Assembly: GCA_020846575.1 (NCBI GenBank) | Contig: JADLDQ010000320.1 | Span: 1 to 37,787 of the forward strand | Direction: 5' to 3' | Length of the DNA stretch: 37,787 nucleotides | Origin: Burkholderiales bacterium | GTDB lineage: Bacteria; Pseudomonadota; Gammaproteobacteria; Burkholderiales; SG8-39 | Part shown: piece by piece, positions 3,790 to 28,585 of the stretch | Layout of the letters: each line of letters starts with the position of its first letter | Position numbering within the stretch: the stretch's first letter is position 1 | The notes under the pieces: model-generated | The model's input: the letters and a program-made list of their open reading frames with translations, nothing else | Told to the model about the DNA's origin: nothing | Database searches by the model: none | Position numbers and translations under genes: made by a program

Positions 3790-4122
3790 CGGAGCGGCAC
3801 CTATCAACCCGACTCCATCAATTCCGACGTGACGTCAGGGTCACCCCGAGCGTTCGGAAAAACCTCACCGGGATCGTTTCCTCGCCGGCGAAGGGCCGGC
3901 CTTTCGAGATGCAGGCCGAGGCGGTGCGCTTCGTGTCCGGCGTCGAGGCCCCGGACGCTTACCCGGTCCAGCCCGAGCCCATACGCTGGGGTTCCTGCGC
4001 GAGCGGGCGCAACTGCGGCCGCGCACCAGCGCCAGCGGCCTGTCGAACGCGCGCGACGTGATCCCGTTTCCACGCACGCCGGGGACAGCGCGCTGTCGAA
4101 CGCGAGGCGCGCGCCGCGCACA
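3790..4122 (+). pseudogene. Decayed, internally deleted duplicate of asparaginyl-tRNA synthetase (asnS)
   Basis: By-eye nucleotide alignment to the intact asnS at 18669-20150 gives three collinear pieces. (i) Upstream leader plus the first ~12 codons, with the start codon changed (AGG GTC ACC CCG AGC GTT CGG versus ATG GTC ACC CTG AGC GTT CGA). (ii) The PSPAKG.PFEMQAE.VRFVSGV...LRPRTS segment, with a 1-nt deletion. (iii) The last ~20 codons [15 protein letters not shown] plus about 35 nt after the stop. Roughly 0.9 kb of the catalytic core is missing. Confidence 0.85.
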
Positions 4123-4333
4123 TCCCCTCGGCTTGATTCAGGTCAAGCGCCAGTCCTTGACAAGCCGGAACGCTACGAGCAAGCTCGCCGCCGAGCAGTG
4201 CGGCGGAGCAGTGCGGCGTGACGCGCGCGAGGCCGAACGCTGCGGCCGCAAGCCAGTGCGGTGGCCGCCGCCCGCAAGCGCAAAGCTTCGAATATCCCGT
4301 GGAGCAGATTGGAAGATCGAGAGGAGAAGACGA

Positions 4334-5314
4334 ATGCGAATGGCCGGTAGCGTTGGCGTGATCAGCGTCATGACGCTTGTGCTGAGCATCGCACTCGCCG
4401 GGGGCGCCCGGGCGCAGAGCGACTATCCCGCGCGGCCGATCCGTTTCGTCATCCCGTTCGCCGTCGGCGGTATCGCCGACATTCACGCACGCATCGTTGG
4501 CGTGGAGCTGGGCAAGCGGCTGGGCCAGGGCGTCGTGGTCGAGAACCAACCCGCGGCCTTCGGCATCCCCGCGGCAAAGGCGGTGCTCGCGCAGGCGCCC
4601 GACGGGCATACGATAACGCTGCTCGCGAACGGCACGGCCACCAGCGTCTCGCTCACCACCCTGCCGTTCGATCCGGTGAATGACTTTGCGCCGGTGGCGA
4701 GCATCGCGACTTTCGACCACGTGCTGGTGGTCAATGCAAGATCGAGCCTGCGGTCGATCGCCGACATCGTCGCGGCGGCGCGCGCCAGGCCGGAAGGCCT
4801 GAACGTCGGCACCTCGGCGCCGGGCACGACCGGCAATCTGGTCACCCATCTGTTCATCCAGCGCTCGGGAATCAAGGCGGCGCTGGTGCCGCACCGCAAT
4901 ACCGGCGAGCTGGCGATCGGACTGTTACGCAACGACCTCGACCTGATCGTTCACACCTACGCCGCCATTGTGGCGCAGCTCAAGGATGGAAGCCTGCGCG
5001 CCGTTGCGGGAACGGGCGCGAAACGCTCGGCCGTACTGCCCGACGTTCCCACCGCGCAAGAGGGCGGGCTGGCGGGTTTCGATGCGGCGTCATGGTTCGG
5101 CATCTTCGTTCGCGCCGGCACGCCGGGCCCGATCATCGCGCGGCTCAATCGCGAGATCAACGCGACGCTGCATGAGGACCGCATCAAGCAGCGTCTTCTC
5201 GCGCTCGGGACGGAGCCGATGATCGGCACGCCGGAAGACCTTCATGCGCGGCTCAGCAACGACATCGAGCGATGGCGAGTCGTCATAGACAAGGCGGGTC
5301 TGAGGAACAAGTGA
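4334..5314 (+). CDS. Bug-family (TctC-like) periplasmic substrate-binding protein
   Basis: MRMAGSVGVISVMTLVLSIALAGGARAQSDYPARPIRFVIPFAVGG... has a signal peptide followed by the Bug signature YP.RPIR.V.PF..GG. GAGGAG SD lies upstream of ATG 4334. The upstream part of listed ORF 4058..5314 overlaps the asnS remnant and is rejected. Confidence 0.9.
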   Translation: MRMAGSVGVISVMTLVLSIALAGGARAQSDYPARPIRFVIPFAVGGIADIHARIVGVELGKRLGQGVVVENQPAAFGIPAAKAVLAQAPDGHTITLLANGTATSVSLTTLPFDPVNDFAPVASIATFDHVLVVNARSSLRSIADIVAAARARPEGLNVGTSAPGTTGNLVTHLFIQRSGIKAALVPHRNTGELAIGLLRNDLDLIVHTYAAIVAQLKDGSLRAVAGTGAKRSAVLPDVPTAQEGGLAGFDAASWFGIFVRAGTPGPIIARLNREINATLHEDRIKQRLLALGTEPMIGTPEDLHARLSNDIERWRVVIDKAGLRNK

Positions 5315-5582: not shown

Positions 5583-6821
5583 CTAATTCATCAGCGCCTG
5601 CAGCGGTACCAGCACGTCGGCCAGTGCGGCCGGCTCGAACGTACGGCCGGATCGGATCAGGCGGCGGGCGAAGCGCACGTCGCGGCCTGTGTTGACGCCT
5701 GAGCAACCGACCATGCGTCCATCAGCCAGATAGAACACGGTGAACGCGCCGGTCGCGGGGTCGCCTCGCGTCACCGTGCTGTCCCAGGCTTGCCGCAGAC
5801 CCATGAGCTGAATGTTCATGTCGTACTGGTCGGACCAGAACCAAGGGATCTCGCTGTAGGCGGCCGCCTCTTCGGGGTTCGCGGCCAGCATCGCCTTGGC
5901 GACGGCAATGGCCTGATTCTGCGCGTTCTCCCACGACTCGAGTCGCACGCGCTGCCCAGTGGGCACGTTCGGATGATTGGTCACGTCGCCCGCGGCGAAG
6001 ACGTGCGCATCCGAGGTGCGGCCTCGGTCGTCGACCACGATGCCGTCTGCCGTCGCCAGTCCGGCGTCGCGCGCCAGCTCGACGTTGGGTACGATGCCGA
6101 TGCCGATCACCACGAGCCCGCACGCCAGCGTGGTGCCGTCGGACAGTACCGCGCGCTCCACGCGGCCGTTGCCTTCAAGGCGTGTCACCGTGGTCTTGAG
6201 GCGCACATCGACACCGTTCCGGCGGTGGACGTCCTCGAGGTAGCCGGCGAGGTCGCGCGTGAGCCCCCGGACGCACAGCTGGTCGAGCGCCTCGATCAGC
6301 GTCACCTCGGCACCGAGCTGACGCGCGGCCGACGCCACCTCGAGCCCGATCCAGCCGCCGCCAACCACGAGGACGCGGCTTCCGGGCTCGATCGCCGTCT
6401 TGATGGCGAGGGCGTCGGGGATTGTGCGCAGGTAATGCACCCCGGCGAGCTCCGCCCCGGGCAGTACGAGCCTGCGCACGCGCGCCCCGGTCGCCAGCAT
6501 GAGCCGCTCGTAGACGATCACTTCGCCGTCGGCAAGCTCGACACGGCGGTTGCCGCAGTCGAGGCGAGTCGCACGGCGGGCGAGCTTGAGCTCGACCTCC
6601 CAGTCGTCCCACGACTTCGCTGGCCACAAGTACGCGGCTTCGGGCGGCTTGGCGCCGGCCAGGATTTCCTTGGAAAGCGGCGGCCGCTCGTAGGGCGGAT
6701 GCTCTTCCTCGCCGATGAGGATGATGCGCCCGTCGAAGCCGCCGTCGCGGAGCGTCTTCGCTGTCCAGCCCCCCGCCTGCCCGGCGCCGACGACGACGAA
6801 GGTGCGGCTGCCGCTGGTCAC
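5583..6821 (-). CDS. FAD-dependent NAD(P)H:ferredoxin reductase (pyridine-nucleotide-disulfide oxidoreductase class, as used by Rieske and P450 systems)
   Basis: 412 aa. It has two Rossmann motifs, VVVGAGQAGG and VLVVGGGWIGLEVA, plus the C-terminal reductase block PWFWSDQYD. Starts at GTG 6821. Confidence 0.9.
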   Translation of the reverse strand: MTSGSRTFVVVGAGQAGGWTAKTLRDGGFDGRIILIGEEEHPPYERPPLSKEILAGAKPPEAAYLWPAKSWDDWEVELKLARRATRLDCGNRRVELADGEVIVYERLMLATGARVRRLVLPGAELAGVHYLRTIPDALAIKTAIEPGSRVLVVGGGWIGLEVASAARQLGAEVTLIEALDQLCVRGLTRDLAGYLEDVHRRNGVDVRLKTTVTRLEGNGRVERAVLSDGTTLACGLVVIGIGIVPNVELARDAGLATADGIVVDDRGRTSDAHVFAAGDVTNHPNVPTGQRVRLESWENAQNQAIAVAKAMLAANPEEAAAYSEIPWFWSDQYDMNIQLMGLRQAWDSTVTRGDPATGAFTVFYLADGRMVGCSGVNTGRDVRFARRLIRSGRTFEPAALADVLVPLQALMN

Positions 6822-6887
6822 GGACGGATGGGTAAGTCGGTCTTGCGCATTTTCTTACTCGGCGGAATGCCGGACCATTCTACGACG

Positions 6888-6909
6888 CGTTGACAGCGCG
6901 CTGTCAACG
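6888..6909. promoter_or_regulatory. Perfect 22-bp palindrome (candidate operator) embedded in back-to-back sigma70-like promoters
   Basis: CGTTGACAGCG/CGCTGTCAACG is a perfect 11+11 inverted repeat. Each arm carries TTGACA. On the plus strand, TTGACA 6890-6895, an 18-nt spacer and AATAAT 6914-6919 lie upstream of the cupin gene. On the minus strand, TTGACA, a 19-nt spacer and TAGAAT lie upstream of the reductase gene. Confidence 0.55.
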
Positions 6910-6950
6910 TCGCAATAATCGACCGCATCATCCAAAAGGAGGATTTCGGT

Positions 6951-8264
6951 ATGCAACGCAAGAATCGCTTCGACATCTACGCCAGCGCTGCTGCGCGCCG
7001 CCCTTACGATGAATGTCCGATGCTGGAGCTGGGAATCGATCCGCAACTGCATCTCAGCCGCAACGACCGCGTCCAGCCGTTCTTCCTGATCTGCGAACAG
7101 GACTGCGTGATCGCGCAGATGTCAGGCGCCGCCCGGGTCGAATTCCGCGCTTCGTCGGTCAACTATTTCGATCTTCAGCTCGGCGATTTCGTCTATGTTC
7201 CGGCCGGCACGCCGCATCGCATCGTGCCGCAATCGGAGTCGATTCATCTGCGTTACAAGGCGGCCGAGGCGGGCCTGGAGGCGGTTGCGTGGTATTCGCC
7301 GAAGACCCACGAGGAGATCGCGCGCGTCACCTGGGACTGCGCCCGGGAGCTACCGCAGGAAGGGTATCTGCGCGCGAGTCGCACCTTCAACGAGAATGCG
7401 CGCATGCGCACCTGCCCGACCACTGGCACGGTGCTGCCGCAGATCGATCTGGCGCCGTTCGGTTGGGAAGCGCTGGCGAAGGAGATCCGCGCAGCGGAAT
7501 CCGCGGATCGGGAGCGGTTGGCGGCGCGAGGCGAACCTCTGCCAAACGAGCGAGCGCGCCGCCCGTCACGCAGCGAGATTGCGCCCGCCGGCGAAAGCAA
7601 GGTACCGCTCAAGAACAACGTCTACGACTTTGCGCGCAACGCGCACGCCGCCCTGTCGCCGCTGTTTTCCTATTTCGACCCCGGCGCCATCGTGCCGTGC
7701 GTGGCGCTGTTCGATCTCAAGGGCCGCGGCCCGCGCGGATACTTCGTGCATTTCAATACCGTGCAGGAAGCGAACGTGTGTTTCGGGGTGCGCGGCATGC
7801 CGCACCTGCGGCCCGGCATCGCCTCCGTCGGGCCGCTGACTCATCCGGTCGGCGACAAACCGGGCCAGCCTTCCGATCCCGACATGATCTCCGTGCACGT
7901 GATCACCCTGCGCCTGGCAGTGGGCATTCCGGAGGCCGAGGCGATCATGTTGATGTGTGAGAAGTGCGGCGAGGAGATCTTCCGGCGCGACTACGGACTT
8001 GAATTCCCCGATCCGCTGTCCGGTGAGATTGATCCCCAGATCGTCGGGCTGCCGACGGTCTCGCAGTCAGCTGCGACGGCCCAGTTCTTCAACGAGCGGA
8101 TCGAGAACCGCACCTGCAAGAAGTGCGGCCATGTCAGCGCCTCGTTCCCCGTAGATTCCTGGGGCTGGCAGGATTACCGTCGGCGCACCCAGGTCGTGGT
8201 CGAGGCTCGCGCCATCATGAAGAGTGCCGCTCAGCAGAGCGGTCATGCAGCACCTGCGACATGA
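6951..8264 (+). CDS. Tandem 3-hydroxyanthranilate-dioxygenase-like (HAO-like) cupin protein with a C-terminal rubredoxin-like Cys4 site; function unknown
   Basis: 437 aa with a strong SD (AAGGAGGA 7 nt before the ATG). Module 1 (residues ~25-165) has the cupin block GDFVYVPAGTPHRIVPQ, then WYSPKTHEEI...RTCPTTG. Module 2 (residues ~215-400) ends in LMCEKCGEEI...RTCKKCGHV, i.e. CxxC...CxxC. The pattern matches my memory of bacterial HAO (cupin followed by WYC..C....C..CG). Confidence 0.75.
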   Translation: MQRKNRFDIYASAAARRPYDECPMLELGIDPQLHLSRNDRVQPFFLICEQDCVIAQMSGAARVEFRASSVNYFDLQLGDFVYVPAGTPHRIVPQSESIHLRYKAAEAGLEAVAWYSPKTHEEIARVTWDCARELPQEGYLRASRTFNENARMRTCPTTGTVLPQIDLAPFGWEALAKEIRAAESADRERLAARGEPLPNERARRPSRSEIAPAGESKVPLKNNVYDFARNAHAALSPLFSYFDPGAIVPCVALFDLKGRGPRGYFVHFNTVQEANVCFGVRGMPHLRPGIASVGPLTHPVGDKPGQPSDPDMISVHVITLRLAVGIPEAEAIMLMCEKCGEEIFRRDYGLEFPDPLSGEIDPQIVGLPTVSQSAATAQFFNERIENRTCKKCGHVSASFPVDSWGWQDYRRRTQVVVEARAIMKSAAQQSGHAAPAT

Positions 8265-8653
8265 TCATGAGCGAGCCCGCGCAGCGCATCGAAGCGGACA
8301 GCGAAATTCCGGTCGATCACGAATTCCTTCCGGCCTTGTCGGTGTCCGACGTGCGCCCCGGGCAGCCGAAGCGGGCCACCATCGGTGATCTGGAACTCAC
8401 CATTTACAACCTCGGAGGCACTTTCTACGCGACGGAAGGCTATTGCACGCACGGGCGCGCGCATCTGGCCGAGGGCTACATTGACGGCACTCTGATCGAG
8501 TGCCGCATGCATGGCGGGACCTTCGATATCTGCAGCGGCAAGGCGGTCGGTGCGCCGTGCACGGTCGATCTCAAGACTTACGAAGTCAAAGTCGAGGGCG
8601 ACCGGATCTTGGTCGCCGTGCCGCGCCAGGGGCCGGTTGGCCAGAACGCCTGA
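8261..8653 (+). CDS. Rieske [2Fe-2S] ferredoxin
   Basis: 130 aa. CTHGRAHL (C-x-H) and CRMHGGTF (C-x-x-H) are the Rieske ligand boxes, and the size matches ferredoxin components of multicomponent oxygenases. The start overlaps the cupin stop (ATGA at 8261-8264), which indicates translational coupling. Confidence 0.9.
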   Translation: MIMSEPAQRIEADSEIPVDHEFLPALSVSDVRPGQPKRATIGDLELTIYNLGGTFYATEGYCTHGRAHLAEGYIDGTLIECRMHGGTFDICSGKAVGAPCTVDLKTYEVKVEGDRILVAVPRQGPVGQNA

Positions 8654-8694
8654 GAGTTCAACACGATCATGGAATAGAGCAAAGGGGAAGACTC

Positions 8695-9720
8695 ATGTGC
8701 AATCTCGTGATCCGTCCGGTGTGGGCAGCGTGCGCGCTCGCGCTGCTGACCGGTGCCGCCGCCGCGCAGACAGAACTCAAGCTTGCGACATTCGGTCCGC
8801 CCACGTCCTACTTCTACGTCGATACCGTGCTCCCCTGGGCGGAGGCCGTGAGCAAGGACTCGGGTGGAACCATCACCATCAAGCATTACGGCGGCGGTGT
8901 TCTGGGCCACGCCGGCAACATGTACGACACCGTGCTCAACGGCGCGGCTGACATCGCCTGGGCCCTTCAGGGCACGGTCCCGAACAAGTTCGTCAAGTCG
9001 TCCGTGGTCGAGCTGCCGTTCGCCTACGACGCCGCGGAACCGGGCGCGGTGGCGCTGTGGCGGGTCGTCGCTAGCGGGCTGGCCGCCAGCGACTACGACC
9101 AGGTGAAGCTGCTCGCCGTCACGACGTGGCCCGGCGGTTCGCTTGCGTCGCGTGAAAAGCAGATGGGCAAGCTGGAAGACTTCAAGGGTATGAAGATCGC
9201 CGTCTCCGGCAGACTGCGCGCTGATGTCGTGACTGCGCTGGGCGGCGTGCCGGTGAATATTCCCGTCGACCAGATATATCAAGCCATCGGCAAAGGCGTA
9301 GTCGATGGCTTTCTCGGGTCCATCACAGCCATGCGCCAGTTCAAGTACAACGAGGTTTCCAGGCACTGGCTCAAACTCGAGGTCGTCGGCGCGGGCGCCA
9401 TGCTGATTATGAACAAGACTCGCTTTGACGGCCTGCCTGCGAGAGCCAAGGAGGCCATCGAGAAGCATTCGGGCGAAGCGCTCTCGCGGGCGCTCGGCAA
9501 GTCGAACGACGCCGAGGAGAAACGCGCGTGGGCCTTCCTCGATCAGCAGATCAAGCAGGGCAGGAACGCCCCCATTCAGCCGCTGCCGCCGGCCGAGGTC
9601 ACGCGCTGGCAAAAGGCGGTGCAGCCGGTCATCGACAGCTGGGCGCAGCGTACGCCGAACGGCAAGGCGGTGTACGAGGGCTACCTTGCGGCCGTGAAGA
9701 GCGCGAAATCCGGCAAGTGA
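8695..9720 (+). CDS. TRAP transporter substrate-binding protein, DctP family
   Basis: Signal peptide MCNLVIRPVWAACALALLTGAAAAQ, followed by the DctP-like layout (ELKLATFGPP..., ELPFAYD, EDFKGMKIAVSG, VDGFLGS). GGGGAAG SD lies upstream of ATG 8695. Confidence 0.88.
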   Translation: MCNLVIRPVWAACALALLTGAAAAQTELKLATFGPPTSYFYVDTVLPWAEAVSKDSGGTITIKHYGGGVLGHAGNMYDTVLNGAADIAWALQGTVPNKFVKSSVVELPFAYDAAEPGAVALWRVVASGLAASDYDQVKLLAVTTWPGGSLASREKQMGKLEDFKGMKIAVSGRLRADVVTALGGVPVNIPVDQIYQAIGKGVVDGFLGSITAMRQFKYNEVSRHWLKLEVVGAGAMLIMNKTRFDGLPARAKEAIEKHSGEALSRALGKSNDAEEKRAWAFLDQQIKQGRNAPIQPLPPAEVTRWQKAVQPVIDSWAQRTPNGKAVYEGYLAAVKSAKSGK

Positions 9721-9730
9721 CAGAGGGCTG

Positions 9731-9836
9731 ATCCGCGCAGAGTCGCCTGCTGGCGCGATGTCGAGCGCTGGTGAATCGCACAGGCGCGACCATCCGCAGA
9801 GTCTCCTGCTGGACGGTGTCGAGCGCTGGTGCATCG
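9731..9836 (+). repeat. Imperfect tandem duplication (~60-bp period) at the 5' end of the TRAP permease gene
   Basis: ATCCGCGCAGAGTCGCCTGCTGGCGCGATGTCGAGCGCTGGTGAATCG (9731-9778) versus ATCCGCAGAGTCTCCTGCTGGACGGTGTCGAGCGCTGGTGCATCG (9792-9836). Only a handful of mismatches and one 2-nt indel by eye. Confidence 0.7.
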
Positions 9837-11692
9837 TATTGTCGCGGCGTATCGGTATCCTCGCGATCGGGGGAATGCTGGCGCTCGCGATTCTCACCGT
9901 CGTCGATATCGCGCTTCGTTACTTTCTCAGCATGCCCGTCCGCGGGCTCGTCGAGATAAGCTCGCTGCTCATGGCAGTGATCGTGGTGGCAACGTTCCCG
10001 GTCGGAATCATGGAGCGCAGCCACATCACGATCGATCTGCTCCAGGGAATGCTCGGCCCCAGGCAGGTCAAGCTCGGCGAGCTGATCGGCGCGCTCATGA
10101 TGCTCGTATTCCTGGCGCTCGTGGCTTGGCGGCTGGGCGTCCACGCTCACCGAGTCGGGTTGCGGGCCGACGCCACGATGATCATCGGCATCCCCACGGC
10201 GCCGTTCTGGTGGGTGGCGACGGCGATTCTCGGCCTGTGCGTCCCGATGCAGGTGATCGTGATTGCGAAGTACTGGTCCGAGGTATGGGCGGCGCCGGCC
10301 AGCCCTGAGGACCGCCGCGGTCGTGCCATCATTGGCGCCGTCGTCGCGCTCACCCTGCTGTTGTACGCAGCGCTGATCGCGGGCAGCACGATGGGCGCTA
10401 CGACGCTGGCGCTGGTGGCGCTGGGCGCACTGTGGCTGCCGCTGATGATCCTGGTGCCAGTCGGCCCGGCCATGGGTATTGTCGGTATTGTCGGCACAGC
10501 AGTCCTCACGAATACCGAGGCTTCGCTCAGCACGCTCGCGATCCAGATTGTTTCGTTCCTCGCCAACGCCAACGTTTCCGTGCTGCCGCTGTTCCTGATG
10601 ATGGGCAGTCTGGCGGCTGCCGCCGGGCTGTCCGATGACATTTACGCGATCGCGCACGCCCTGCTCGGGCGGCTGCGCGGCGGTCTGGCGATGGCAACCA
10701 TCGGCGGTTGCGCCGGGTTCGGCGCCGTGACCGGCTCGTCGGTGGCGACCGTGGCGACTATCGGTCGGGTCGGCCTGCCGGAGATGAAGGCGCGCGGCTA
10801 CAGCACTGCGCTGGCGACCGGCACCATCGCGGCGGGCGGCACGCTCGGCGCTCTGGTGCCGCCCTCGGCGCCGTTGATCGTGTTCGCTCTGCTCACCGAG
10901 GCTTCGATCGGCCAGTTGTTCATTGCTGCGGTGGGTCCAGCCGCGCTCGCGGTCGCCCTCTATCTCGTCACCATCTGGTGCTACGTGCGGCTGTGCCCGG
11001 ACGCCGCGCCCGGCGCCGCGCGCCGCGAACCCGGCGCGCTGGCGGCCGCGCTCAAGCGCTGCGGGGCGCTCGCCTTCACGTTCGGCACGGTGCTCGGGGG
11101 CATCTACATCGGCGTCTTCACCATCACCGAATCTGCCGCAGTCGGCGTCGCCGCGACCTTTCTCGTGGCCTTGCATCGAGGCAAACTCAAACGCGGCAGG
11201 TTTCTGAACCTGATCGCGGAGACCACCATCACTACGGCAATCATCTACCTGATCATCGTCGGTGCGCTGATCTTCTCCTATTTCATGGGTCTGTCGGGTC
11301 TTGCCGAGGCAGTCACCAAGGCGGTCGCCGCACTCGACTGGTCGCCGTTCGCGATTGTGGCGCTGCTGCTCGCCATCTACATCGGGCTCGGCACCTTCAT
11401 GGAGTCCTACACCATAATGATCATCACGGTGCCGATCGTGAGCCCGCTCATCCTTGCGATGGACTACAACATTCTCTGGTGGGGCATTCTGATGCTGTGT
11501 GTGGTCGAGACCGGCGCGATCACGCCGCCGTTCGGTCTCAACATGTTCGTGGCCAAGAACCTCGCCGGCGTGCCGATGGCGGATGTGTTCCGCGGAGTCA
11601 TGCCGTTCGTCGCCGCCGATCTCGTGCGCATCGCCATTGTTGCCGCCTTCCCGCCGCTGTCGCTGTGGCTCGTGTCCACCATGTTCAATTAG
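9758..11692 (+). CDS. TRAP transporter fused small/large permease (DctQ-DctM fusion)
   Basis: 644 aa. The N-terminal ~170 aa have DctQ-like helices (ILAIGGMLALAILTVVDIALRYF). A long polytopic DctM-like domain follows (LPLFLMMGSLAAAAGLSDDIY, GGTLGALVPPSAPLIVFALL, ITPPFGLNMFVAKN). The start is uncertain: ATG 9758 has no SD, and in-frame TTG 9839 is an alternative. Confidence 0.88.
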   Translation: MSSAGESHRRDHPQSLLLDGVERWCIVLSRRIGILAIGGMLALAILTVVDIALRYFLSMPVRGLVEISSLLMAVIVVATFPVGIMERSHITIDLLQGMLGPRQVKLGELIGALMMLVFLALVAWRLGVHAHRVGLRADATMIIGIPTAPFWWVATAILGLCVPMQVIVIAKYWSEVWAAPASPEDRRGRAIIGAVVALTLLLYAALIAGSTMGATTLALVALGALWLPLMILVPVGPAMGIVGIVGTAVLTNTEASLSTLAIQIVSFLANANVSVLPLFLMMGSLAAAAGLSDDIYAIAHALLGRLRGGLAMATIGGCAGFGAVTGSSVATVATIGRVGLPEMKARGYSTALATGTIAAGGTLGALVPPSAPLIVFALLTEASIGQLFIAAVGPAALAVALYLVTIWCYVRLCPDAAPGAARREPGALAAALKRCGALAFTFGTVLGGIYIGVFTITESAAVGVAATFLVALHRGKLKRGRFLNLIAETTITTAIIYLIIVGALIFSYFMGLSGLAEAVTKAVAALDWSPFAIVALLLAIYIGLGTFMESYTIMIITVPIVSPLILAMDYNILWWGILMLCVVETGAITPPFGLNMFVAKNLAGVPMADVFRGVMPFVAADLVRIAIVAAFPPLSLWLVSTMFN

Positions 11693-11716: not shown

Positions 11717-12682
11717 ATGTCGACACCTGTGCTAAAGCGTTCGATCACGCTCAACTTCATGGGAGACTGGGGCAACGCCAACCTGCACCGCGCGTTCGGC
11801 TGGTTGAGTTCGGAAATGGTCAACTTATGCGGCCCGCACACCCGCATCGCCATCTGGAACGGAAACGGCGCGATGCGCAATCTCCGGGCGGTGGGCCGCG
11901 GCGAGGTCGACGTCGCGCTGGTGACGCCGGCGCATTTCGTCGCCATGGCCCTCGACGGCCGCGGTCCCTGCGCGGACGAGTTCTACCCGCACCTGCGGGC
12001 TCTGGGACATGTTCCACAGCACGATCGCCTCATCTTCGCGGTACGCAAGGAATTCGGCGTCGCGTCGTTCGGCGATCTGCGCGAGAAGAAACCGCCGCTG
12101 CGCATCAGCGTCGGCCTCGACGACGGCGACAACTTCATGGGTATGGCGGCTCAGTACGTGATGGCGAAAAGCGGCATCAGCCGCCGCGAGTTCGAATCCT
12201 GGGGCGGGCGCTACATCGAGAACGAGACGCCGCGCGCCTGCGTCAACGAGGTGCTTGCCGGCAACGCCGACGCCATCATGCAGGAAGCTGTAATGACCCA
12301 ATACTGGCGCGCCATGACGGACAAGATCGACTTCGATTTCATTGAGATCGAGCAGCGCGCACGCGATGCCCTGATTCGGGACCTCGGCTGGCCGAGCGCG
12401 AGGCTGCCCAAGGGCTACCTGCGTGGTATGGACCGCGAGATGGAGTTCCTCGATTTTTCCCATTTCCTGCTGGTCACGACCACCGACCTGCCGGATGACG
12501 TCGCGTATGGCCTGTCGTGGTGCCTGGTGGAAAAGTGGTCGGGTCTCGAGGAGCAGTACCGCCACCTGCCGCCCGAGCGCAGCCCCGTGTCCTATCCCTT
12601 GGACGCGCGCGCCGCCTGCCGCACGCCGATTCCACTGCATCCGGGCGCCGAACGCTATTTCCGCGACAAAAAACTCCTTTGA
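11717..12682 (+). CDS. TAXI-family (TRAP-associated, NMT1-like) solute-binding-fold protein lacking a signal peptide
   Basis: 321 aa with SD GAGAGGAAG before the ATG, 24 nt after the permease stop. TAXI-like blocks are RAVGRGEVDVALVTPAHFVAMALDG, LRALGHVP, FGDLREKKPPLRISVG and the C-terminal IPLHPGAERYFRDK. The N-terminus MSTPVLKRSITLNFMGDWG enters the first beta-strand directly, with no hydrophobic leader and no lipobox. Confidence 0.7.
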   Translation: MSTPVLKRSITLNFMGDWGNANLHRAFGWLSSEMVNLCGPHTRIAIWNGNGAMRNLRAVGRGEVDVALVTPAHFVAMALDGRGPCADEFYPHLRALGHVPQHDRLIFAVRKEFGVASFGDLREKKPPLRISVGLDDGDNFMGMAAQYVMAKSGISRREFESWGGRYIENETPRACVNEVLAGNADAIMQEAVMTQYWRAMTDKIDFDFIEIEQRARDALIRDLGWPSARLPKGYLRGMDREMEFLDFSHFLLVTTTDLPDDVAYGLSWCLVEKWSGLEEQYRHLPPERSPVSYPLDARAACRTPIPLHPGAERYFRDKKLL

Positions 12683-15453: not shown

Positions 15454-16425
15454 CTATTGTTGAAGTTTGATGTTCCGCGCCTTGATGATGCCGCCGATCT
15501 TCTTGCGCTCGGAGACAAGGAACGCAGTCAAATCCTCCGGCGAACCGCCAGCGGCGACGTAATTCATTGCGAGCAGCTTCTGGCGAACATCGGGCACCTT
15601 CAGAACGCGATTGACGTCGGCGTTGATTCGCCTCTGAATGTCGCGATCGAGGTGCGCCGGGGCGTGCAGACTCAGCCAGGTGCTCACCTCCAGTCCGGTC
15701 ACGCCCTGTTCCGCGAATGACGGCACGGATGGCGCCCCTTCGAACCTCTTGTCGCCCACGACGCCCAGCACCTTCAGCTTTCCCTGTCTCACCTGAGCCA
15801 TGGTGGATACGTCCAGGGCCACCTGGACGGTGCCCGCCAGCAGATCGACCACGGCGACGCCCATGCCCTTGTACGGGACATGCACCATCTGGATCCCGAC
15901 TCGTGTCATGAACTGCTCGGTGGCAATGTGAAACGATGAACCGTAGCCGGTCGTCGCGTAGGACAGTTTGTCGGGATTGGATTTCGCGTAGGCGATGAAC
16001 TCCTGCAGGTTGCTGGCCGGCACGGAGGGGTGGACGATCAGGAAGATGGGGCTGATCGCGAGCAAGGCGAGCGGCGTGAAATCCCTCTCCGTATCGTACG
16101 GGAGCTCGTTGAAAAGAAACTGATTGGCCGCCTGCGAGGTGATGATGCCGAGCCCGAGTGTGTAGCCATCCGGCTTCGCCTTGGCGACTGCATCGGTGCC
16201 GATGATGGTGTTGCCGCCGGGCTTGTTTTCGACGTAGACGCGTTGCGGCCACATCGTGGAGAGCCTCTCGGCGAGAACCCGCGCCGTTCCGTCGGCGGTG
16301 CCGCCGGCGGCGAGCGGAACGACGATCTGGACCGGTCGTGCCGGCCAGGACGGCTGCTGCGCGAACGCCGGAGTGGCAAGAAGTGACGCGGCGACGAGCA
16401 GCGTTACTCGAAGAGCGCTTCGCAT
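15454..16425 (-). CDS. Bug-family (TctC-like) periplasmic substrate-binding protein
   Basis: MRSALRVTLLVAASLLATPAFAQQPSWPARPVQIVVPLAAGGTADG... Internal ATG 16425 has a GGGAG SD. Confidence 0.9.
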   Translation of the reverse strand: MRSALRVTLLVAASLLATPAFAQQPSWPARPVQIVVPLAAGGTADGTARVLAERLSTMWPQRVYVENKPGGNTIIGTDAVAKAKPDGYTLGLGIITSQAANQFLFNELPYDTERDFTPLALLAISPIFLIVHPSVPASNLQEFIAYAKSNPDKLSYATTGYGSSFHIATEQFMTRVGIQMVHVPYKGMGVAVVDLLAGTVQVALDVSTMAQVRQGKLKVLGVVGDKRFEGAPSVPSFAEQGVTGLEVSTWLSLHAPAHLDRDIQRRINADVNRVLKVPDVRQKLLAMNYVAAGGSPEDLTAFLVSERKKIGGIIKARNIKLQQ

Positions 16426-16571
16426 TCGAATCTCCCTGTGGTTTGCGTGAAGATCACGCGTCATGGTTCGTGCTGTACATGCTTTGCCCCGGCACAGTCG
16501 TATCGTACGCGGTCCTGAACGCCGTTTGCAAACGCCCTGGCCTCCAGGCTCATACCTCGTTGGAAAAGACT

Positions 16572-16605: not shown

Positions 16606-16881
16606 GTGATCTCCGGTTTCCGGCACAAGGGCCTGCGCGAGCTGGCGCAGACCGGCAAATCGGCGAAGGTGCGTGCCGACCTGCACGCCCGGACCCTGCG
16701 GAGGCTGGACGCCATCGCCGCGGCGAAGACACCCGAGGCACTTCGGGTGCCGGGGTTCGACTTCCACCCGCTGCAGGGTCGCCCGCAGCGCTATAGCGTG
16801 CACGTGAACGGCCCCTGGTGCATCACCTTCGGCTGGGATGGCGAGAACGCGATCGATGTCGACCTGGAGAACTACCACTGA
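16606..16881 (+). CDS. higB: HigB toxin (RelE/ParE superfamily, plasmid-maintenance killer protein)
   Basis: MISGFRHKGLRELAQTGKSAKV...GFDFHPLQGRPQRYSVHVNGPWCITFGWDGENAIDVDLENYH matches the remembered HigB pattern (F.HKGL......G; LHPLKG; W.I.F.F; DYH). Confidence 0.9.
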   Translation: MISGFRHKGLRELAQTGKSAKVRADLHARTLRRLDAIAAAKTPEALRVPGFDFHPLQGRPQRYSVHVNGPWCITFGWDGENAIDVDLENYH

Positions 16882-16890
16882 GGGGTGACG

Positions 16891-17187
16891 ATGAGTAAGA
16901 CCCGCTGCCCGACGCATCCCGGTGCCATCCTGCGCGAAGACACGCTGCCCGCCCTGGGCCTGTCGGTGGCCGCGTTCGCGCGGGCGCTGGGGGTGTCGCG
17001 CCAGATGCTCCACGGCATCCTCGCCGAGCGCGCCTCGGTGACCCCGGAGATGGCGCTGCGCCTGGGGGCATTCCTCGGCAACGGGCCGCAGCTGTGGATC
17101 GATCTGCAGGTGCGCCACGCTCTGTGGCAGGCCGAGCGGCGCATGAGCGGGCGCCTGCCCAAGGCGCACGAGGCGCGCGCGGCTTGA
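16891..17187 (+). CDS. higA: HigA antitoxin (XRE-family HTH)
   Basis: HPGAILREDTLPALGLSVAAFARALGVSRQMLHGILAERASVTPEMALRLGAFLGNGPQLWIDLQ is the HigA/VapI HTH signature. ATG 16891 is preceded by GAGGGG; GTG 16885 is also possible. Confidence 0.9.
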   Translation: MSKTRCPTHPGAILREDTLPALGLSVAAFARALGVSRQMLHGILAERASVTPEMALRLGAFLGNGPQLWIDLQVRHALWQAERRMSGRLPKAHEARAA

Positions 17188-21425: not shown

Positions 21426-22190
21426 TCAGTCGGTCCGGAATCGCGAAAAATCCGGCGCGCGTTTCTCCAGGAAGGCGCTCATCGCCTCTTTCGCCTCGGG
21501 CGAACCGAGCCGCTCGGCGAACAGGCGCGCCTCCTCCGCAATGCGCGCGCCGAGCGCCTCGCGGCCGGCGGCTTTCAGGAGTCTTTTCGTGAGGCGTATC
21601 GATTCCGGCGGCAGCGCGGCGAGCGCTGCGGCGGCCCGCTGCGCCTCCTCGAAGAGAGTCTCCTCCGGGAAGATCGCGTTGACGATGCCGGCCTCCTTCG
21701 CCTCTTCCGCGGTAAAGGGACGGCCGAGGAGCAGCAGCTCCGCGGCGCGCTGGTAGCCGGCGAGCAGCGGCAGAAGCAGGCTCGAGCCGAATTCCGGCAC
21801 CAGGCCCAGCGGTACGAAGGGAAGCCGGAAGCGCGCGCCGGGCGCCGCGTACACGAGGTCGCAGTGCAGCAGCAGCGTGGTGCCGATGCCGACCGCCGGG
21901 CCGCCGACCGCCGCGACCACCGGCTTGTCCAGCCCGGGCAGCACCTCGAACAGATCGAACGCCGGCGATCGATCACCTGCCTTTCGCGCGAGGAATTCCG
22001 ACACGTCGTTGCCCGAGGTGAAGCACTCGCGGCTGCCGTGCAGCAGCAGCGCGCGCACCTGCGGGCTCCTGTCCGCCGCGGCGAGGGCCGCGGCGAGGCG
22101 GGCGTACATGTCGGCGGTCAAGGCGTTCTTCTTCTCGGGTCGGGCGATCTCGATGCGGGTGACACCCTTTTCGGCCGTCACGTGTATCAA
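21426..22190 (-). CDS. Enoyl-CoA hydratase/isomerase (crotonase) family protein
   Basis: ...ITLNRPEKKNALT-like block (RIEIARPEKKNALTADMYARL), FTSGNDVSEF, and GPAVGIGTTLLLHCDLVYA (oxyanion-hole region). TTG start 22190 overlaps the upstream stop (TTGA), with GGAGGAGGA just upstream. The 216 N-terminal codons of listed ORF 21426..22838 are an out-of-frame overlap with the MetF domain and are rejected. Confidence 0.88.
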   Translation of the reverse strand: MIHVTAEKGVTRIEIARPEKKNALTADMYARLAAALAAADRSPQVRALLLHGSRECFTSGNDVSEFLARKAGDRSPAFDLFEVLPGLDKPVVAAVGGPAVGIGTTLLLHCDLVYAAPGARFRLPFVPLGLVPEFGSSLLLPLLAGYQRAAELLLLGRPFTAEEAKEAGIVNAIFPEETLFEEAQRAAAALAALPPESIRLTKRLLKAAGREALGARIAEEARLFAERLGSPEAKEAMSAFLEKRAPDFSRFRTD

Positions 22191-23866
22191 AAGTCCTCCT
22201 CCCCGCCCCCAAGCGCGGCCCTTTCCGCCCGCCGCGCCGCGATGCGCTCGGTGAGTATCCCCGACTCCTCGATGATCTCCCCCACGAGGTGTTCGCGCCG
22301 GTAGGCCATCACGTGCACGCCGGCCACGCCCTCGATCTCGCGGATCTGCCGGATGATCTCGATGCAGATCTTCTTGCCTTCCTCCGCCGGCCTCCCCGAC
22401 TTCTCGATGCGCTCGATGAGCGCGTCCGGAATATGGATGCCGGGGACGTTGCTGCGCATCCAGCGCGCGGTCTTCGGCGAAGGGAGCGGCCCCACGCCCG
22501 CCAGGATGAACACTTCCCGATGCACGCCCATGTCGCGTATGCGTGCCATGAAGCGCCGGAACAGTTCCACGTCGAACACGTAGTTGGTCTGGATGAAATC
22601 GGCGCCGGCCTCCACTTTCTTCGCCAGCCGGTCGGCGCGCAGCTCGTAGGGCGGGATGCAGGGGTTCTCCGCCGCGCCGAGGAACACCCGCGGCGGCGTG
22701 GTGATGGCGCGGCCGGAGAGGAAGCGCTGTTCGTCGCGCATGGTCTTCAACGCCCGCAGCAGCGACATGCAGTCGAAGTCGAACACCGGCTTCGCTCCCG
22801 GCTGGTCGCCCACCGCCACCCCGTCGCCGGTGAGGCACAGCACGTTCGAGACGCCCATGGCGGCCGCACCCAGCACGTCGCCCTGGATGGCGATGCGGTT
22901 GCGGTCGCGGCAGGAGATCTGCAACACCACCCCCAGCCCGGCGCGCGACAGGATGGAGGAGATGCCCATGGAGGACATGTGGCAGTTGGCGCCCGAGGCA
23001 TCGGTGGCGTTGATCGCGTCCACCACGTCCTGCAACGGCTCGGCGGCGGCCAGCACGTCGCGCGGGTCGGCCGAATCCGGCGGGTTGAGCTCGGCGGTCA
23101 CCGCGAACCAGCCCTTGCGCAGCGTGTGCTCCAGGCTGGACGCGGACCTGTAGCCCGGCGGCGGCGCGGGCGGCGCGTGTACGATCGGGTCATAGGGCGC
23201 CGGTGCGAGGAAAGGGCGCGGGGCTTCGCCCTCGCTTGCCGCGGCGCCCGGGACCGGCGCGTAGTGGCGCGGCTGCGCCGTCGAAGGCTGGCCGGGCGTG
23301 GCCGCGCGTGGCTCGAGCGCGAGCGGCGCGGTCGCGGGCTCGATGGTGCGCGCCTGCGGGAACGCCCGTGCGATCGCCGCTTTCCTCGGTTCGGGCTGCG
23401 CGCCGGGGCTGCGCGCCGCCGCCGCCTTCTCGCGCGCCACCCGCAGCCACGCCGAGGAGCCGCGCAGCGTCTGGTCCACGGGCGGCTGCACCACGGCGAT
23501 CTTCTGCAGCCCGTACTTCATCCGCCGGGCGCCGTCAAGCGCTTCCACCCACACGCAGCGCATCGCGGGGTTCACCTCGCAGTGCCGGTCCGGCCGCACC
23601 CCGCTGCAGGGCCCGTTGCGCAGGTTCTTGGGGCAGTTCATCGGGCAGGACATGCCGGTGGAGGACAGCACGCACTGGCCGCACATCTTGCAGTCGAACA
23701 GCAGGCCCTTGACGAGCTTCTCCGTGACTGCGAAGGGCGCTTCCAGGCGCTCGTAGCCGATGCGCCGGAACACCGGGTCGAGGGCCACGATCACTCGCTC
23801 GAGCGCGAGGTACAGTTGCTCGAACGCGCTTGCGTGGCGGACGGCGAATCGGCGCAGTGCGTACAT
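22187..23866 (-). CDS. Fusion protein: MetV-like Cys-rich domain (MTHFR C-terminal-type) + Pro/Ala-rich linker + MetF-type methylenetetrahydrofolate reductase TIM barrel
   Basis: Single 559-aa ORF. Residues 59-104 hold eight Cys (CKMCGQCVLSSTGMSCPMNCPKNLRNGPCSGV..HCEV..RCVW). Residues ~146-243 are a low-complexity P/A linker. Residues ~250-545 carry MetF blocks (FAVTAELNPPD, VDAINATD, ISCRDRNRIAIQGDVLGAAAMGVSNVLCLTGD, VFDFD, KKVEAGADFIQTNYVFD). AGGAAGG SD lies before ATG 23866. Confidence 0.85.
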   Translation of the reverse strand: MYALRRFAVRHASAFEQLYLALERVIVALDPVFRRIGYERLEAPFAVTEKLVKGLLFDCKMCGQCVLSSTGMSCPMNCPKNLRNGPCSGVRPDRHCEVNPAMRCVWVEALDGARRMKYGLQKIAVVQPPVDQTLRGSSAWLRVAREKAAAARSPGAQPEPRKAAIARAFPQARTIEPATAPLALEPRAATPGQPSTAQPRHYAPVPGAAASEGEAPRPFLAPAPYDPIVHAPPAPPPGYRSASSLEHTLRKGWFAVTAELNPPDSADPRDVLAAAEPLQDVVDAINATDASGANCHMSSMGISSILSRAGLGVVLQISCRDRNRIAIQGDVLGAAAMGVSNVLCLTGDGVAVGDQPGAKPVFDFDCMSLLRALKTMRDEQRFLSGRAITTPPRVFLGAAENPCIPPYELRADRLAKKVEAGADFIQTNYVFDVELFRRFMARIRDMGVHREVFILAGVGPLPSPKTARWMRSNVPGIHIPDALIERIEKSGRPAEEGKKICIEIIRQIREIEGVAGVHVMAYRREHLVGEIIEESGILTERIAARRAERAALGGGEEDF

Positions 23867-23903
23867 GTGTCCTTCCTGTGTTCGCCCGCTCGCCGGGCGG
23901 GCT

Positions 23904-25658
23904 TCACGCCGTCGCGGGCTGGCTTTCCGTGACCACCCGGGCCGGGGGCCGGTGGGACGCGAAGTAGGCGTCGTGGCCGGCGATGTCGGTGATCCGCGGG
24001 CGCAAGCTCACCGTGGGCCTGCCGCTCTCGCGCCAGGCGGTGAGGAACTTGTCCGCGAGCAGCGGGTTGGTGAAGCGGTAGTCCGACCTGCGGTGCGTGC
24101 CGCGGGTTTCCCGCCGCGCGAGCGCCGATACGAAGATCGCCTCGGCGCAATCCATGAGTTCCATCACCTCGGCCATGCGCATCAGCTCGTGCGCGTTGGC
24201 GCAGCGCACCGTGTCCATGGCGCGGCGCCCGAGGTCGCCCAGGTACTTGAGGCCCGCCGAGAGCAGCGTCTCGGAGCGCACCTCGGCGTTCGCGTAGTCG
24301 CGCATGATCTGCTGCACCATGAAGTTCGCCTCCTTCCACGCGGCGCCCTCGGCGCGCGCGAGGAAGGCCGAGAACTGGCTGCGGCGCAGTTCGAAGAGCG
24401 CGCTGTCCTCCACCCGCTCGGCCGGCGACAGCGCGCGCAGGTCCCGCGCCGCGGCCTCGCCCGCGATGTGCCCGAAGGTCGCGGCGCCCGCCATGTCGGC
24501 GCGGAAGTTGCCCACGGCGTCGCCGGCCGCGTACAGACCCTGCACGCGCGTGCGCGCATGCAGGTCGATCTCGGGGCCCCGGCCGATGAGAAACGGCTGG
24601 TACTGCATGAATTCCAGGCGATGGCGGCGCAGGTCCACCCCTTCCTTGCCCATGAGATTCACCAGGGCGGTGTTGCCTTCCTCCTTCAGACCCCACATCA
24701 TGTACTCGATGTCGGCCGGGTCGGTGGCGGTGCAGTCCATGTAGGCGGGCCCTTCGCCGGACTTCATCACGTCGCCGAACACCGAGTTCCACACGTCCGC
24801 GGTGATGTCGCCCAGCCACTTGTCGGCCTTGGTGATGAACGGACCCAGCGGTTTGCCGTCCGGACCGGTGATCACGCCGATGAAAGTCGCCTTGCCGGCC
24901 CGCTCCAGGTACTTCACCCCGGCGTGCAGATTGGGAAATTCCATGTTCGCCAGTTTCGCGCCGCTGCGCCAGGCGATCGCCTGGGTGTTGCCGGTGCAGG
25001 CCGGGCACCACGCGGTGTTGAACAGCAGCGAAGGCGCGGGCGAGGGGTAAAGGCGAATCGCCGAGCCGCCCGCGAGCACGACCGCCGCGGTGCGCACCAG
25101 GCGCAGCCGCGGCTGCACGCTGCTCACGTCCAGGCCGATGGCGCCGATCACCCGGCCTTTCTCCACCACCACGTCGACGATGGGCAGGTAGTTCACGGTT
25201 CGCACGCCCAGCTTCTTCGCAGCGCGCGTCAGCGCCAGCTTCTGGTTGCTGCCCGCGTACTTGAGCCAGATGCGCGGCCGGCCGGGGAAGGCGTGACCGC
25301 AGAACGACCACTCGCCGGTGGGCCGCATGTCGATGCCGAAACTCTCCCAGTCGCGCGCGCGGTCGAAGGACTGCTCGAGAAACTTGCGCGACAGCGGCGT
25401 GTCGTGAAAGCCGCCGATCTGGCTGGCGAGCAGCTCCTTGAGTATCGGTTCGATGTCCGGCCCGTGCTTTTCCGGTATGTAGCACATGAAGTGGTCGTTG
25501 CCGGTCGCACCCGAGCCGCTGCGCAGGGCGTGCGCCTTCTCGGCGACCACCACCTTCGCGCCCTGGCGCGCCGCGCCGATGGCGGCCATCAGGCCCGCCA
25601 TGCCGCCGCCGGCGACCAGTACGTCGCATTGGAGGACGCCAGGGTCGATCTCGATCAT
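23904..25658 (-). CDS. FAD-dependent oxidoreductase of the SdhA/FrdA/NadB/AprA flavoprotein superfamily
   Basis: 584 aa from internal ATG 25658. It has the Rossmann motif DVLVAGGGMAGLMAAIGAARQGAKVVVAEK, plus GLYAAGD and the C-terminal RRETRGTHRRSDY block (the R.E.RG.H signature of this superfamily). The upstream 65 codons of the listed ORF are Arg/Cys-rich shadow. Confidence 0.85.
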   Translation of the reverse strand: MIEIDPGVLQCDVLVAGGGMAGLMAAIGAARQGAKVVVAEKAHALRSGSGATGNDHFMCYIPEKHGPDIEPILKELLASQIGGFHDTPLSRKFLEQSFDRARDWESFGIDMRPTGEWSFCGHAFPGRPRIWLKYAGSNQKLALTRAAKKLGVRTVNYLPIVDVVVEKGRVIGAIGLDVSSVQPRLRLVRTAAVVLAGGSAIRLYPSPAPSLLFNTAWCPACTGNTQAIAWRSGAKLANMEFPNLHAGVKYLERAGKATFIGVITGPDGKPLGPFITKADKWLGDITADVWNSVFGDVMKSGEGPAYMDCTATDPADIEYMMWGLKEEGNTALVNLMGKEGVDLRRHRLEFMQYQPFLIGRGPEIDLHARTRVQGLYAAGDAVGNFRADMAGAATFGHIAGEAAARDLRALSPAERVEDSALFELRRSQFSAFLARAEGAAWKEANFMVQQIMRDYANAEVRSETLLSAGLKYLGDLGRRAMDTVRCANAHELMRMAEVMELMDCAEAIFVSALARRETRGTHRRSDYRFTNPLLADKFLTAWRESGRPTVSLRPRITDIAGHDAYFASHRPPARVVTESQPATA

Positions 25659-25698
25659 GATCGGGTTCCCGTTGCGGTGGCGGTGTTGCGCCCGGCGA

Positions 25699-26010
25699 TT
25701 ACTCGCGGGGCATCTCCCAGGCCGACTCCGGGTGATTGCCCAGATGGTCCCCGACGATGTCGTAGGGCGAGCCACGCGGCGCCGAAGGGTCGATCCACAG
25801 CAGCTGCATCTGCAGCGGCACGCGCAGCTCGATCCCCTTGTGACCGTTCTCACCCGGACAGTCGAGCACGCAGGCGTCGCAGTACCAGCATTCTTCGGGA
25901 TACAGAACCTGCGGGACGCGGTGGTCCTTGTGATGGCTGAAGACGTCGCAGGGGCAGATCGCGGCGCAGATCCCGCAGCCGTTGCAGTGGCGATTGAAAA
26001 CCGGCGGCAT
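25699..26010 (-). CDS. 2x[4Fe-4S] ferredoxin, AprB-like
   Basis: CNGCGICAAICPCDV and CWYCDACVLDCP are two cluster-binding motifs. The CW.C..CV..CP block resembles the adenylylsulfate-reductase beta subunit. ATG 26010 has GGAG 6 nt upstream; ATG 26022 is an alternative start. Confidence 0.8.
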   Translation of the reverse strand: MPPVFNRHCNGCGICAAICPCDVFSHHKDHRVPQVLYPEECWYCDACVLDCPGENGHKGIELRVPLQMQLLWIDPSAPRGSPYDIVGDHLGNHPESAWEMPRE

Positions 26011-26199
26011 GCGCAGCTCCATGCGCCTCACGGGCGGCGCGAAAGTCGGCGACCCGCGCACCTTGCCCGAGCGCTGCGGTGGGTGTTTGACGCAGATCAA
26101 GGCGCCACGACGGCGCGGCCGCGCCCGGGGCGACGCGCGCCATGATTAAATCGCTTCTGGTCCGCGCCGTACGGGGCCTACGCCAAGAGGAGGGTAGCC

Positions 26200-28391: not shown

Positions 28392-28585
28392 TGTACCCGC
28401 GCGCTGGCGGATACGGGGAACGCCGGCGCCAGGTCCGGCAATCCCGTGAACGAGGCGGGGTAGCGTAACGGGCCTCGCGGCGCCGCCTCATGAGCACGGT
28501 CGAGGCGGCGCCTGCGGACCTGGCGATCCGGATGCGGGCGCCGGGTATATCATCCGGCCTGGTGCCGACAACCGGAGGTGTACTC

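Follow-up and report, generated by a model that had tools for sequence, protein, structure and literature searches.

The stretch of 37,787 nucleotides analysed here, contig JADLDQ010000320.1 of a Burkholderiales bacterium (assembly GCA_020846575.1), and referred to below as the window, contains a gene for a two-domain cupin protein (a bicupin), which resembles 3-hydroxyanthranilate 3,4-dioxygenase (HAO) in fold and metal sites and is flanked by genes for a Rieske ferredoxin and a ferredoxin reductase. From the genes and their relatives in other genomes, it is moderately probable that these genes specify a multicomponent non-haem-iron oxygenase, dependent on NAD(P)H and not described before, of which the HAO-like bicupin would be the terminal component. 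A first-pass annotation of the window had proposed that the cupin is functionally wired to the ferredoxin and the reductase, and it had left two readings side by side: the cupin as a terminal, electron-consuming oxygenase, or a dedicated chain for the repair of its oxidised iron. The wiring is supported by cupin-carrier fusions of the Rosetta-stone type, by translationally coupled carrier genes and by the exchange of three donor types among relatives, and because of these three features the link does not seem to be accidental. The first reading is favoured, and the repair chain is ranked lower, because donor swapping resembles the behaviour of terminal oxygenases such as P450s and Rieske oxygenases, for which it is typical; the conservation of the triad and Cys4 site of the C-like domain, the lack of the substrate-binding residues of HAO and the fact that no alternative electron acceptor was found within the window also count for a terminal oxygenase.

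The genes and sites that compose the region are the following (coordinates refer to the window):

5583-6821, minus strand: FAD-dependent ferredoxin-NAD(+) reductase of the glutathione-reductase type, 412 amino acids, divergent from the cupin operon
6822-6950: divergent control region of 129 bp, between the reductase and cupin genes
6890-6907: operator-like perfect palindrome, TTGACAGCGCGCTGTCAA, overlapping the -35 box
6951-8264, plus strand: bicupin protein, 437 amino acids
6951-7535, plus strand: N-like HAO-type cupin domain of the bicupin (residues 1-195), non-catalytic
7596-8264, plus strand: C-like HAO-type cupin domain of the bicupin (residues about 216-437), predicted to be catalytic
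8261-8653, plus strand: Rieske [2Fe-2S] ferredoxin, 130 amino acids, with a start that overlaps the cupin stop
8695-9720, plus strand: DctP-type TRAP periplasmic binding protein with a signal peptide (PF03480, 1e-38; hydrophobic leader)
9758-11692, plus strand: fused DctQ-DctM TRAP membrane component (DctM 2.5e-77, DctQ 5e-14)
11717-12682, plus strand: leaderless TAXI-like/NMT1_3 protein with a binding-protein fold (PF16868, 1.7e-18)

The positions that the first-pass annotation had assigned to the reductase, the 129-bp gap, the cupin, the ferredoxin and the ATGA shared by the cupin stop and the ferredoxin start (8261-8264) all hold on re-examination. The reductase is composed of the Pyr_redox_2 and Reductase_C domains (2e-73 and 4e-29, respectively, in a Pfam domain search); among NCBIfam models it comes closest to AndAa (408 bits) and HcaD (382 bits), without reaching the equivalog cut-off of either, and it shares 39-43% identity with the reductases encoded in the flavodoxin operons of Methylocella, Pseudomonas chlororaphis and Variovorax. 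The public gene call for the cupin (P0001) starts at Met24, corresponding to position 7020, and gives a protein of 414 amino acids; the start at ATG 6951, with a product of 437 residues, is preferred because it is backed by an upstream GGAGGA ribosome-binding site and by the conserved N-terminus MRRKNRF. The ferredoxin (PF00355, 6e-20) is of the HcaC/AndAb-like type and its ligand motif, CTH...CRMH, is intact. Pfam scans of the well-supported open reading frames of the window revealed no Rieske alpha/beta oxygenase, diiron hydroxylase or cytochrome P450, as had been noticed at first; a six-frame motif scan of the 37.8 kb agreed with this result, since the sole Rieske motif was that of the ferredoxin itself and no P450 haem loop was detected.

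The cupin protein, called simply HAO-like in the first-pass annotation, consists of two HAO-like cupin domains in tandem, which are paralogues of each other (hhalign probability 98.4%, E 9e-15), one predicted to be catalytic and the other degenerate. The C-like domain contains the motif H267-x5-E273...H298, with the same spacing as the HAO triad H51/E57/H95 (HAO residues are numbered here, presumably, as in the C. metallidurans enzyme), and this motif is kept in about 90 loci. The domain also contains a rubredoxin-like site of four cysteines (Cys4), formed by C336, C339, C389 and C392, which the first-pass annotation had recognized as intact and which is invariant in all homologues; R321 and E330 are near-universal, with exceptions in four loci, one of them a frameshifted copy. 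In the N-like domain, R37, Q42 and P43 are found at the positions of the HAO iron ligands and only H89 is retained, while its Cys4 site is degraded in the window protein to S116, T119, C155 and T158 (7296-7307 and 7413-7424). Mean column identity is 56% for the N-like domain versus 49% for the catalytic C-like one.

An AF2 model of the bicupin, obtained with 27 homologues as input, has a pLDDT of 92.6. Its best Foldseek matches are 3fe5, 2qnk and 5tk5, mammalian HAO being retrieved with an E value of 1e-11; comparison with the bacterial HAO of C. metallidurans gave a TM-score of 0.67 and a root-mean-square deviation of 3.0 Å, at 19% sequence identity. At the sequence level the relationship is distant: the protein scores 33.6 bits with PRK13264 (cut-off 220) and 25 bits with TIGR03037 (cut-off 146), no Pfam model reaches its gathering score, and sequence and profile searches for solved relatives returned nothing below E 0.02, the HAO chains appearing at E about 0.06 in a profile search of PDB sequences. 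Moreover, the HAO substrate-binding residues R47, R99 and E110 are not conserved, the aligned residues being G263, D302, which is variable, and T319. Thus, although its fold and metal sites are HAO-like, the bicupin does not qualify as an HAO, because its scores are below threshold and the substrate-binding residues are not maintained; the term "HAO-like" used in the first-pass annotation is appropriate for the fold and not for family membership. The profile and structure-prediction searches that the annotation had proposed recovered the HAO fold without placing the protein above the threshold of any Pfam or HAO model.

The bicupin family is small and rare. A word-indexed search identified 110 homologues, all of which are unnamed, "hypothetical" or automatically labelled; 78 loci were obtained from a scan of species-representative genomes and more were added by gene-context look-ups and plasmid searches, while a search of 1.84 billion representatives with a profile of the catalytic domain matched only 212 clusters at E <= 0.001. 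No functional name for the family is present in any database source searched, and no published description of the family or of its redox arrangement was found in the literature, consistently with the earlier remark that no described example was known; neither a paper on 7-hydroxycoumarin nor the paper on strain AntQ-1, mentioned below, deals with bicupin-family genes. Two architectures are found: the fused bicupin, as in the window, versus a split form with two genes, the first for a catalytic subunit of about 215 amino acids and the second for an N-like subunit of about 190 amino acids. Most of the hosts are aerobic heterotrophs of soil or marine habitats. Several genomes hold two or three adjacent paralogous copies, with a fused form beside a split one (L016, 8547-12587; L036 and L038, 7600-11270), so that members of the family seem to have been duplicated, and fused or divided, in recent times.

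The association between the cupin and electron-transfer proteins is strongly supported by gene context as a general feature, exceeding what chance would produce. Fusions of the cupin with a C-terminal Rieske domain account for 29 of the 110 homologues; they are 540-576 amino acids long and their Cys/His ligands are invariant. The closest relative of the window protein, P0002 (78% identity), is one of these fusions, and at the corresponding point the window has instead an Ala-rich linker interrupted by the ATGA overlap. The neighbourhood of the cupin was evaluated in 63 distinct loci for which 3 kb or more of sequence was available on both sides, carriers being counted within 6 kb: a redox carrier, either fused or adjacent, is present in 35 of them. 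The carriers differ between the two architectures, the 33 loci with a fused bicupin having a Rieske protein in 19 cases, a reductase in two and no flavodoxin, versus two Rieske proteins, 14 flavodoxins and 11 reductases in the 30 loci of the split form. In this gene-neighbourhood survey, of the kind that had been suggested, some carrier is common, whereas a reductase is adjacent in just 13 of the 63 loci and in 2 of the 33 fused ones, and the Rieske-plus-reductase pair does not hold as a constant feature. The constant trait is therefore a dedicated low-potential electron donor of any kind, and not that particular pair.

Three unrelated donor types are used by different branches of the family, namely a Rieske ferredoxin, a flavodoxin with its reductase, and a VanB-type reductase. 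In P. chlororaphis and Variovorax boronicumulans the operon order is flavodoxin, reductase, dienelactone hydrolase (DLH), catalytic subunit and N-like subunit, while in Methylocella sp. a reductase-flavodoxin operon diverges from the two cupin genes. In the divergent metagenome-assembled genome of locus L090 a downstream flavodoxin gene overlaps the end of the N-like gene, being translationally coupled to it, and in plasmid pGal_C110 of Phaeobacter gallaeciensis the flavodoxin gene is located downstream of both cupin genes. In plasmid pANTQ-1 of Sphingobium sp. AntQ-1 the gene for a PDR/VanB-type reductase begins 4 bp after the N-like gene. The module of this plasmid (L093, 8752-12191) comprises a leaderless PhnD/SsuA-like binding protein, the catalytic subunit, the N-like subunit and the reductase; it is located about 9 kb past the described anthraquinone catabolic region of the plasmid and is absent from the discussion of that paper. 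Downstream of the cupin module of L020, at a distance of 3.4 kb (8591-9849), a second pair formed by a Rieske ferredoxin and a TAXI-like protein, with no cupin gene of its own, was observed.

The Cys4 site of the N-like domain shows a distribution of its own. It is intact in all the split forms and in the fused forms of a divergent clade that lacks Rieske partners, and its degradation is confined to the fused clade of the window protein, where Rieske partners predominate. An exception is represented by L047, a split form that has an adjacent Rieske gene and keeps the N-like Cys4; in addition, eleven fused loci have neither the N-like Cys4 nor a Rieske gene in the available sequence (L006, L013, L015, L016, L021, L023, L024, L026, L036, L038 and the duplicate record L014), three of these loci being either truncated or disrupted by an insertion sequence. 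The coincidence of a lost N-like Cys4 with Rieske partners is a clade-level correlation that rests on few independent events; the pattern would fit an electron relay that was made redundant by the Rieske cluster.

Two further elements, overlooked in the first-pass annotation, belong to the region: the TAXI-like protein at 11717-12682 and the palindrome at 6890-6907. The TAXI-like gene is adjacent to the cupin in 52 of the 63 loci and is the most constant partner; in L047, L049 and L051 it even separates the two cupin genes. Its product scores 60.8 bits with TIGR02122, below the TAXI-family cut-off of 84.35, and conserves the N-terminal motif GDWGxANxHR found in its homologues; among solved structures its nearest matches are without exception solute receptors, with E values no better than 6e-5. 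A signal peptide is absent from the window protein and from nearly all of its 59 homologues, and present in 16 of 16 DctP controls; the few higher hydrophobicity maxima among the homologues can be traced to upstream extensions of the open reading frame. Because it has no signal peptide, the TAXI-like protein is predicted to be a cytoplasmic partner, not a component of the transporter, and such a cytoplasmic role appears undescribed so far. The gene order around DctP recurs in L002 and L010, and the presence of a TRAP transporter in the operon suggests that the substrate may be a carboxylate.

The divergent region contains a strong sigma-70-like candidate promoter, TTGACA-18-AATAAT (6890-6919), matching 11 of 12 positions, and its -35 box is enclosed in the palindrome. 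The general form of the latter, TTGACA-N6-TGTCAA, together with one or two near-variants, has 25 matches in the 1.55 Mb of the collected loci versus about 0.1 expected from base counting, and nearly all of them immediately precede either cupin operons, whether fused or split, or MFS transporter genes under the same control. Further positions are 9952 in L002, 7937 in L006, 7933 in L008, 4402, 6880 and 7671 in L012, 5885 and 9936 in L017, 9908 in L070, 1859 in L074 and 6332 in L088. A MarR gene neighbours many of the cupin loci, although none is found in this window, and the palindrome is probably the site of such a regulator. A 188-amino acid "conserved unknown" open reading frame beside the Methylocella operon turned out to be the antisense frame of the MarR gene and was discarded as an artefact.

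Accessory genes vary from locus to locus. The most recurrent neighbours are members of the FAA-hydrolase family (20 loci), class II aldolases (12), dienelactone hydrolases (10), Amidohydro_2 proteins (8), S15 hydrolases (7) and FAD-dependent aromatic hydroxylases (5); MBL hydrolases are also frequent, while LigAB, intradiol and VOC dioxygenases were each found in single loci. This context points to a possible role in the catabolism of aromatic or lactone-forming carboxylates.

Taken as a terminal oxygenase, the system might operate as follows. Electrons from NADH would be passed to the FAD reductase (5583-6821), from this to the Rieske ferredoxin (8261-8653), then to the rubredoxin-like Cys4 centre of the C-like domain and finally to the iron held by two histidines and one glutamate, where O2 would be activated. 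The N-like domain would be a non-catalytic paralogous partner, which in the flavodoxin-using branches may provide a second Cys4 relay, and the TAXI-like protein may act as a further subunit or as a substrate-handling partner. The TRAP transporter would bring in the substrate, most likely an aromatic or heteroaromatic carboxylate, and a regulator encoded elsewhere, of the MarR type in other loci, would bind TTGACA-N6-TGTCAA. A bolder proposal, on which we lean slightly towards doubt, is that the complex represents a convergent cupin counterpart of the Rieske oxygenases, in which an HAO-like iron would receive two external electrons per turnover through Cys4 relays from interchangeable donors, with the TAXI-like protein as a delivery or effector subunit.

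Several points weigh against a terminal oxygenase. To our knowledge, the characterised HAO-type enzymes are all reductant-free dioxygenases. In HAO a distance of about 24 Å separates the Cys4 iron from the catalytic one, and the former has been taken for an iron reservoir; the Cys4 sites of the present family could bind zinc and be purely structural. An AlphaFold model of the natural cupin-Rieske fusion P0002 has a pLDDT of 61 and is too poor to derive inter-centre distances. No carrier is present within 6 kb of the cupin in 28 of the 63 loci; Rieske-oxygenase-like genes adjoin the module in two loci, encoding a VanA_C protein in L001 and a 402-amino acid Rieske protein in L007; and the FAA-hydrolase genes, with the other hydrolases of lactone or ester type, are also compatible with a plain ring-cleaving dioxygenase. 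Part of this evidence would be accommodated by an unlikely alternative, in which the cupin is a ring-cleaving Fe(II) dioxygenase with no net need for electrons and the carrier, together with its reductase, re-reduces adventitious Fe(III), as in the XylT system. The fold, the triad and the Cys4 site are those of the reductant-independent HAO, the FAA-hydrolase, DLH, MBL, S15, Amidohydro_2 and class II aldolase neighbours would fit the steps after ring cleavage, and the loci devoid of a nearby carrier would suit an accessory function. However, the repair ferredoxins known to us, XylT and its relatives, are small plant-type [2Fe-2S] proteins, which have no dedicated reductase and are not fused to the dioxygenase, whereas the donors found here are Rieske domains fused in cis, flavodoxins with a dedicated NADH reductase in the operon, or complete VanB-type reductases. 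Furthermore, occasional repair would hardly explain a second strictly conserved Cys4 domain devoid of a catalytic site.

The complex could also consume electrons and not be an oxygenase, catalyzing a reductive reaction such as dehydroxylation, dearomatisation or the reduction of nitro, N-O or quinone groups, or serving as an electron-transfer module for a catalytic TAXI-like protein; this we hold to be somewhat less likely still than repair. The constancy of the cytoplasmic TAXI-like partner and the better conservation of the N-like domain, compared with the catalytic one, are in line with such a role, but the 2-His-1-carboxylate triad, the classic O2-activating motif, is invariant, and the hosts are mostly aerobic. 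In addition, no catalytic members of the TAXI family are known to us and the nearest structures are solute receptors. Finally, ferredoxin and reductase might be coincidental neighbours that serve an oxygenase encoded elsewhere in the genome, the cupin working alone. The adjacency of a reductase is essentially confined to this window within the Rieske-type clade, and the Rieske-oxygenase-like genes of L001 and L007 would agree with such an arrangement; nevertheless, it is very improbable in view of the fusions, the ATGA coupling, the three donor types independently recruited across at least 35 loci and the shared operator ahead of the operon. PicB, part of a four-component 6-hydroxypicolinate monooxygenase, was evaluated as a possible match and rejected, being an ordinary Rieske oxygenase according to its paper.

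Comparison with known systems helps to place the proposed terminal oxygenase. With HAO and NbaC (PRK13264, TIGR03037) the bicupin shares the cupin fold, the H-x5-E...H triad and, in the C-like domain, the rubredoxin-like CxxC...CxxC motif; mammalian HAO is likewise a bicupin with one dead domain, but the domain order is reversed, the dead domain coming first in the window protein. Unlike HAO, which needs no reductant, the window protein has dedicated redox partners and a TAXI-like partner, besides having 13-19% identity to HAO, sub-threshold scores and no conservation of R47, R99 and E110; the dedicated donors in its gene context speak against a reductant-free cleavage of 3-hydroxyanthranilate. 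With the three-component Rieske systems (AndAaAbAcAd, HcaA1A2CD, BphA) it has in common the types of reductase and of Rieske ferredoxin and the variation of the donor between branches, and in the fused homologues, as in the alpha subunits of Rieske oxygenases, a single polypeptide carries both a Rieske domain and a mononuclear 2-His-1-carboxylate iron. However, neither an alpha/beta oxygenase nor a Bet v 1-like catalytic domain is found in the 37.8-kb window, and in this family the iron is in a cupin, the Rieske domain is C-terminal and there are one or two extra Cys4 centres.

In concept, the nearest precedent is provided by AibH1H2, which also works with a Rieske ferredoxin and a reductase. 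AibH1H2 is a pair of catalytic and non-catalytic paralogues, and was recognised as a terminal oxygenase from the adjacent genes for a Rieske ferredoxin and a reductase (PMC7782822). The AibH1H2-AibG-AibF monooxygenase and the amidohydrolase-related oxygenases share with the present system a terminal oxygenase, predicted in our case, of unexpected fold, paralogous subunits, a Rieske ferredoxin and an NADH reductase (PMC7782822). They differ from it in being TIM barrels with a dinuclear metal site versus a mononuclear cupin, and there is no sequence relation. The XylT-type ferredoxins, which reactivate catechol 2,3-dioxygenase, provide another parallel, that of a dedicated iron-sulfur protein beside a ring-cleaving Fe(II) dioxygenase, which, as far as we know, is not a cupin; in the window the carrier is instead a Rieske protein with an adjacent reductase, and elsewhere in the family a flavodoxin plus reductase or a VanB-type protein. 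HppE, the (S)-2-hydroxypropylphosphonate epoxidase, is a mononuclear non-haem-iron cupin that needs external redox equivalents and was later shown to use H2O2. The dependence of an iron cupin on such equivalents is the point of resemblance, but HppE lacks both a Cys4 site and carrier genes dedicated to it and is unrelated to the bicupin in sequence.

If the cupin complex is the terminal acceptor, it would represent a new scaffold among the NAD(P)H-driven non-haem oxygenases, which comprise Rieske, soluble diiron and amidohydrolase-related enzymes; it would also assign a redox role to the enigmatic rubredoxin-like site of HAO-type proteins and a first enzymatic partner role to a cytoplasmic TAXI-like protein. 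Should repair be the correct explanation, a dioxygenase with a fused self-repair Rieske domain would be unprecedented. The hypothesis is directly testable, the family being small, conserved and present in cultivable bacteria, such as P. chlororaphis, V. boronicumulans, P. gallaeciensis, Methylocella and sphingomonads.

The remainder of the window contains genes of other kinds. Six TctC/Bug-family binding proteins of tripartite tricarboxylate transporters are encoded, without adjacent TctAB membrane genes; one of them comes after an Amidohydro_2 gene (30909-31904). Their positions are:

4058-5314: TctC/Bug protein
15454-16464: TctC/Bug protein
28490-29557: TctC/Bug protein
29656-30831: TctC/Bug protein
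31897-32910: TctC/Bug protein
33088-34053: TctC/Bug protein

A cluster on the minus strand, at 22187-26100, may encode an electron-transferring complex similar to methylene-tetrahydrofolate reductase:

22187-23866, minus strand: protein with MTHFR and DUF5981 domains
23904-25853, minus strand: FAD_binding_2/fumarate-reductase-like flavoprotein
25699-26100, minus strand: small 4Fe-4S dicluster ferredoxin

The genes at 26200-28280, coding for a STAS-domain protein followed by a 579-amino acid protein with HATPase_c_2, cNMP-binding and SpoIIE phosphatase domains, are a partner-switching regulatory module. A type II toxin-antitoxin pair is also present, composed of a HigB-like toxin (16606-16881) and a helix-turn-helix antitoxin (16885-17187).

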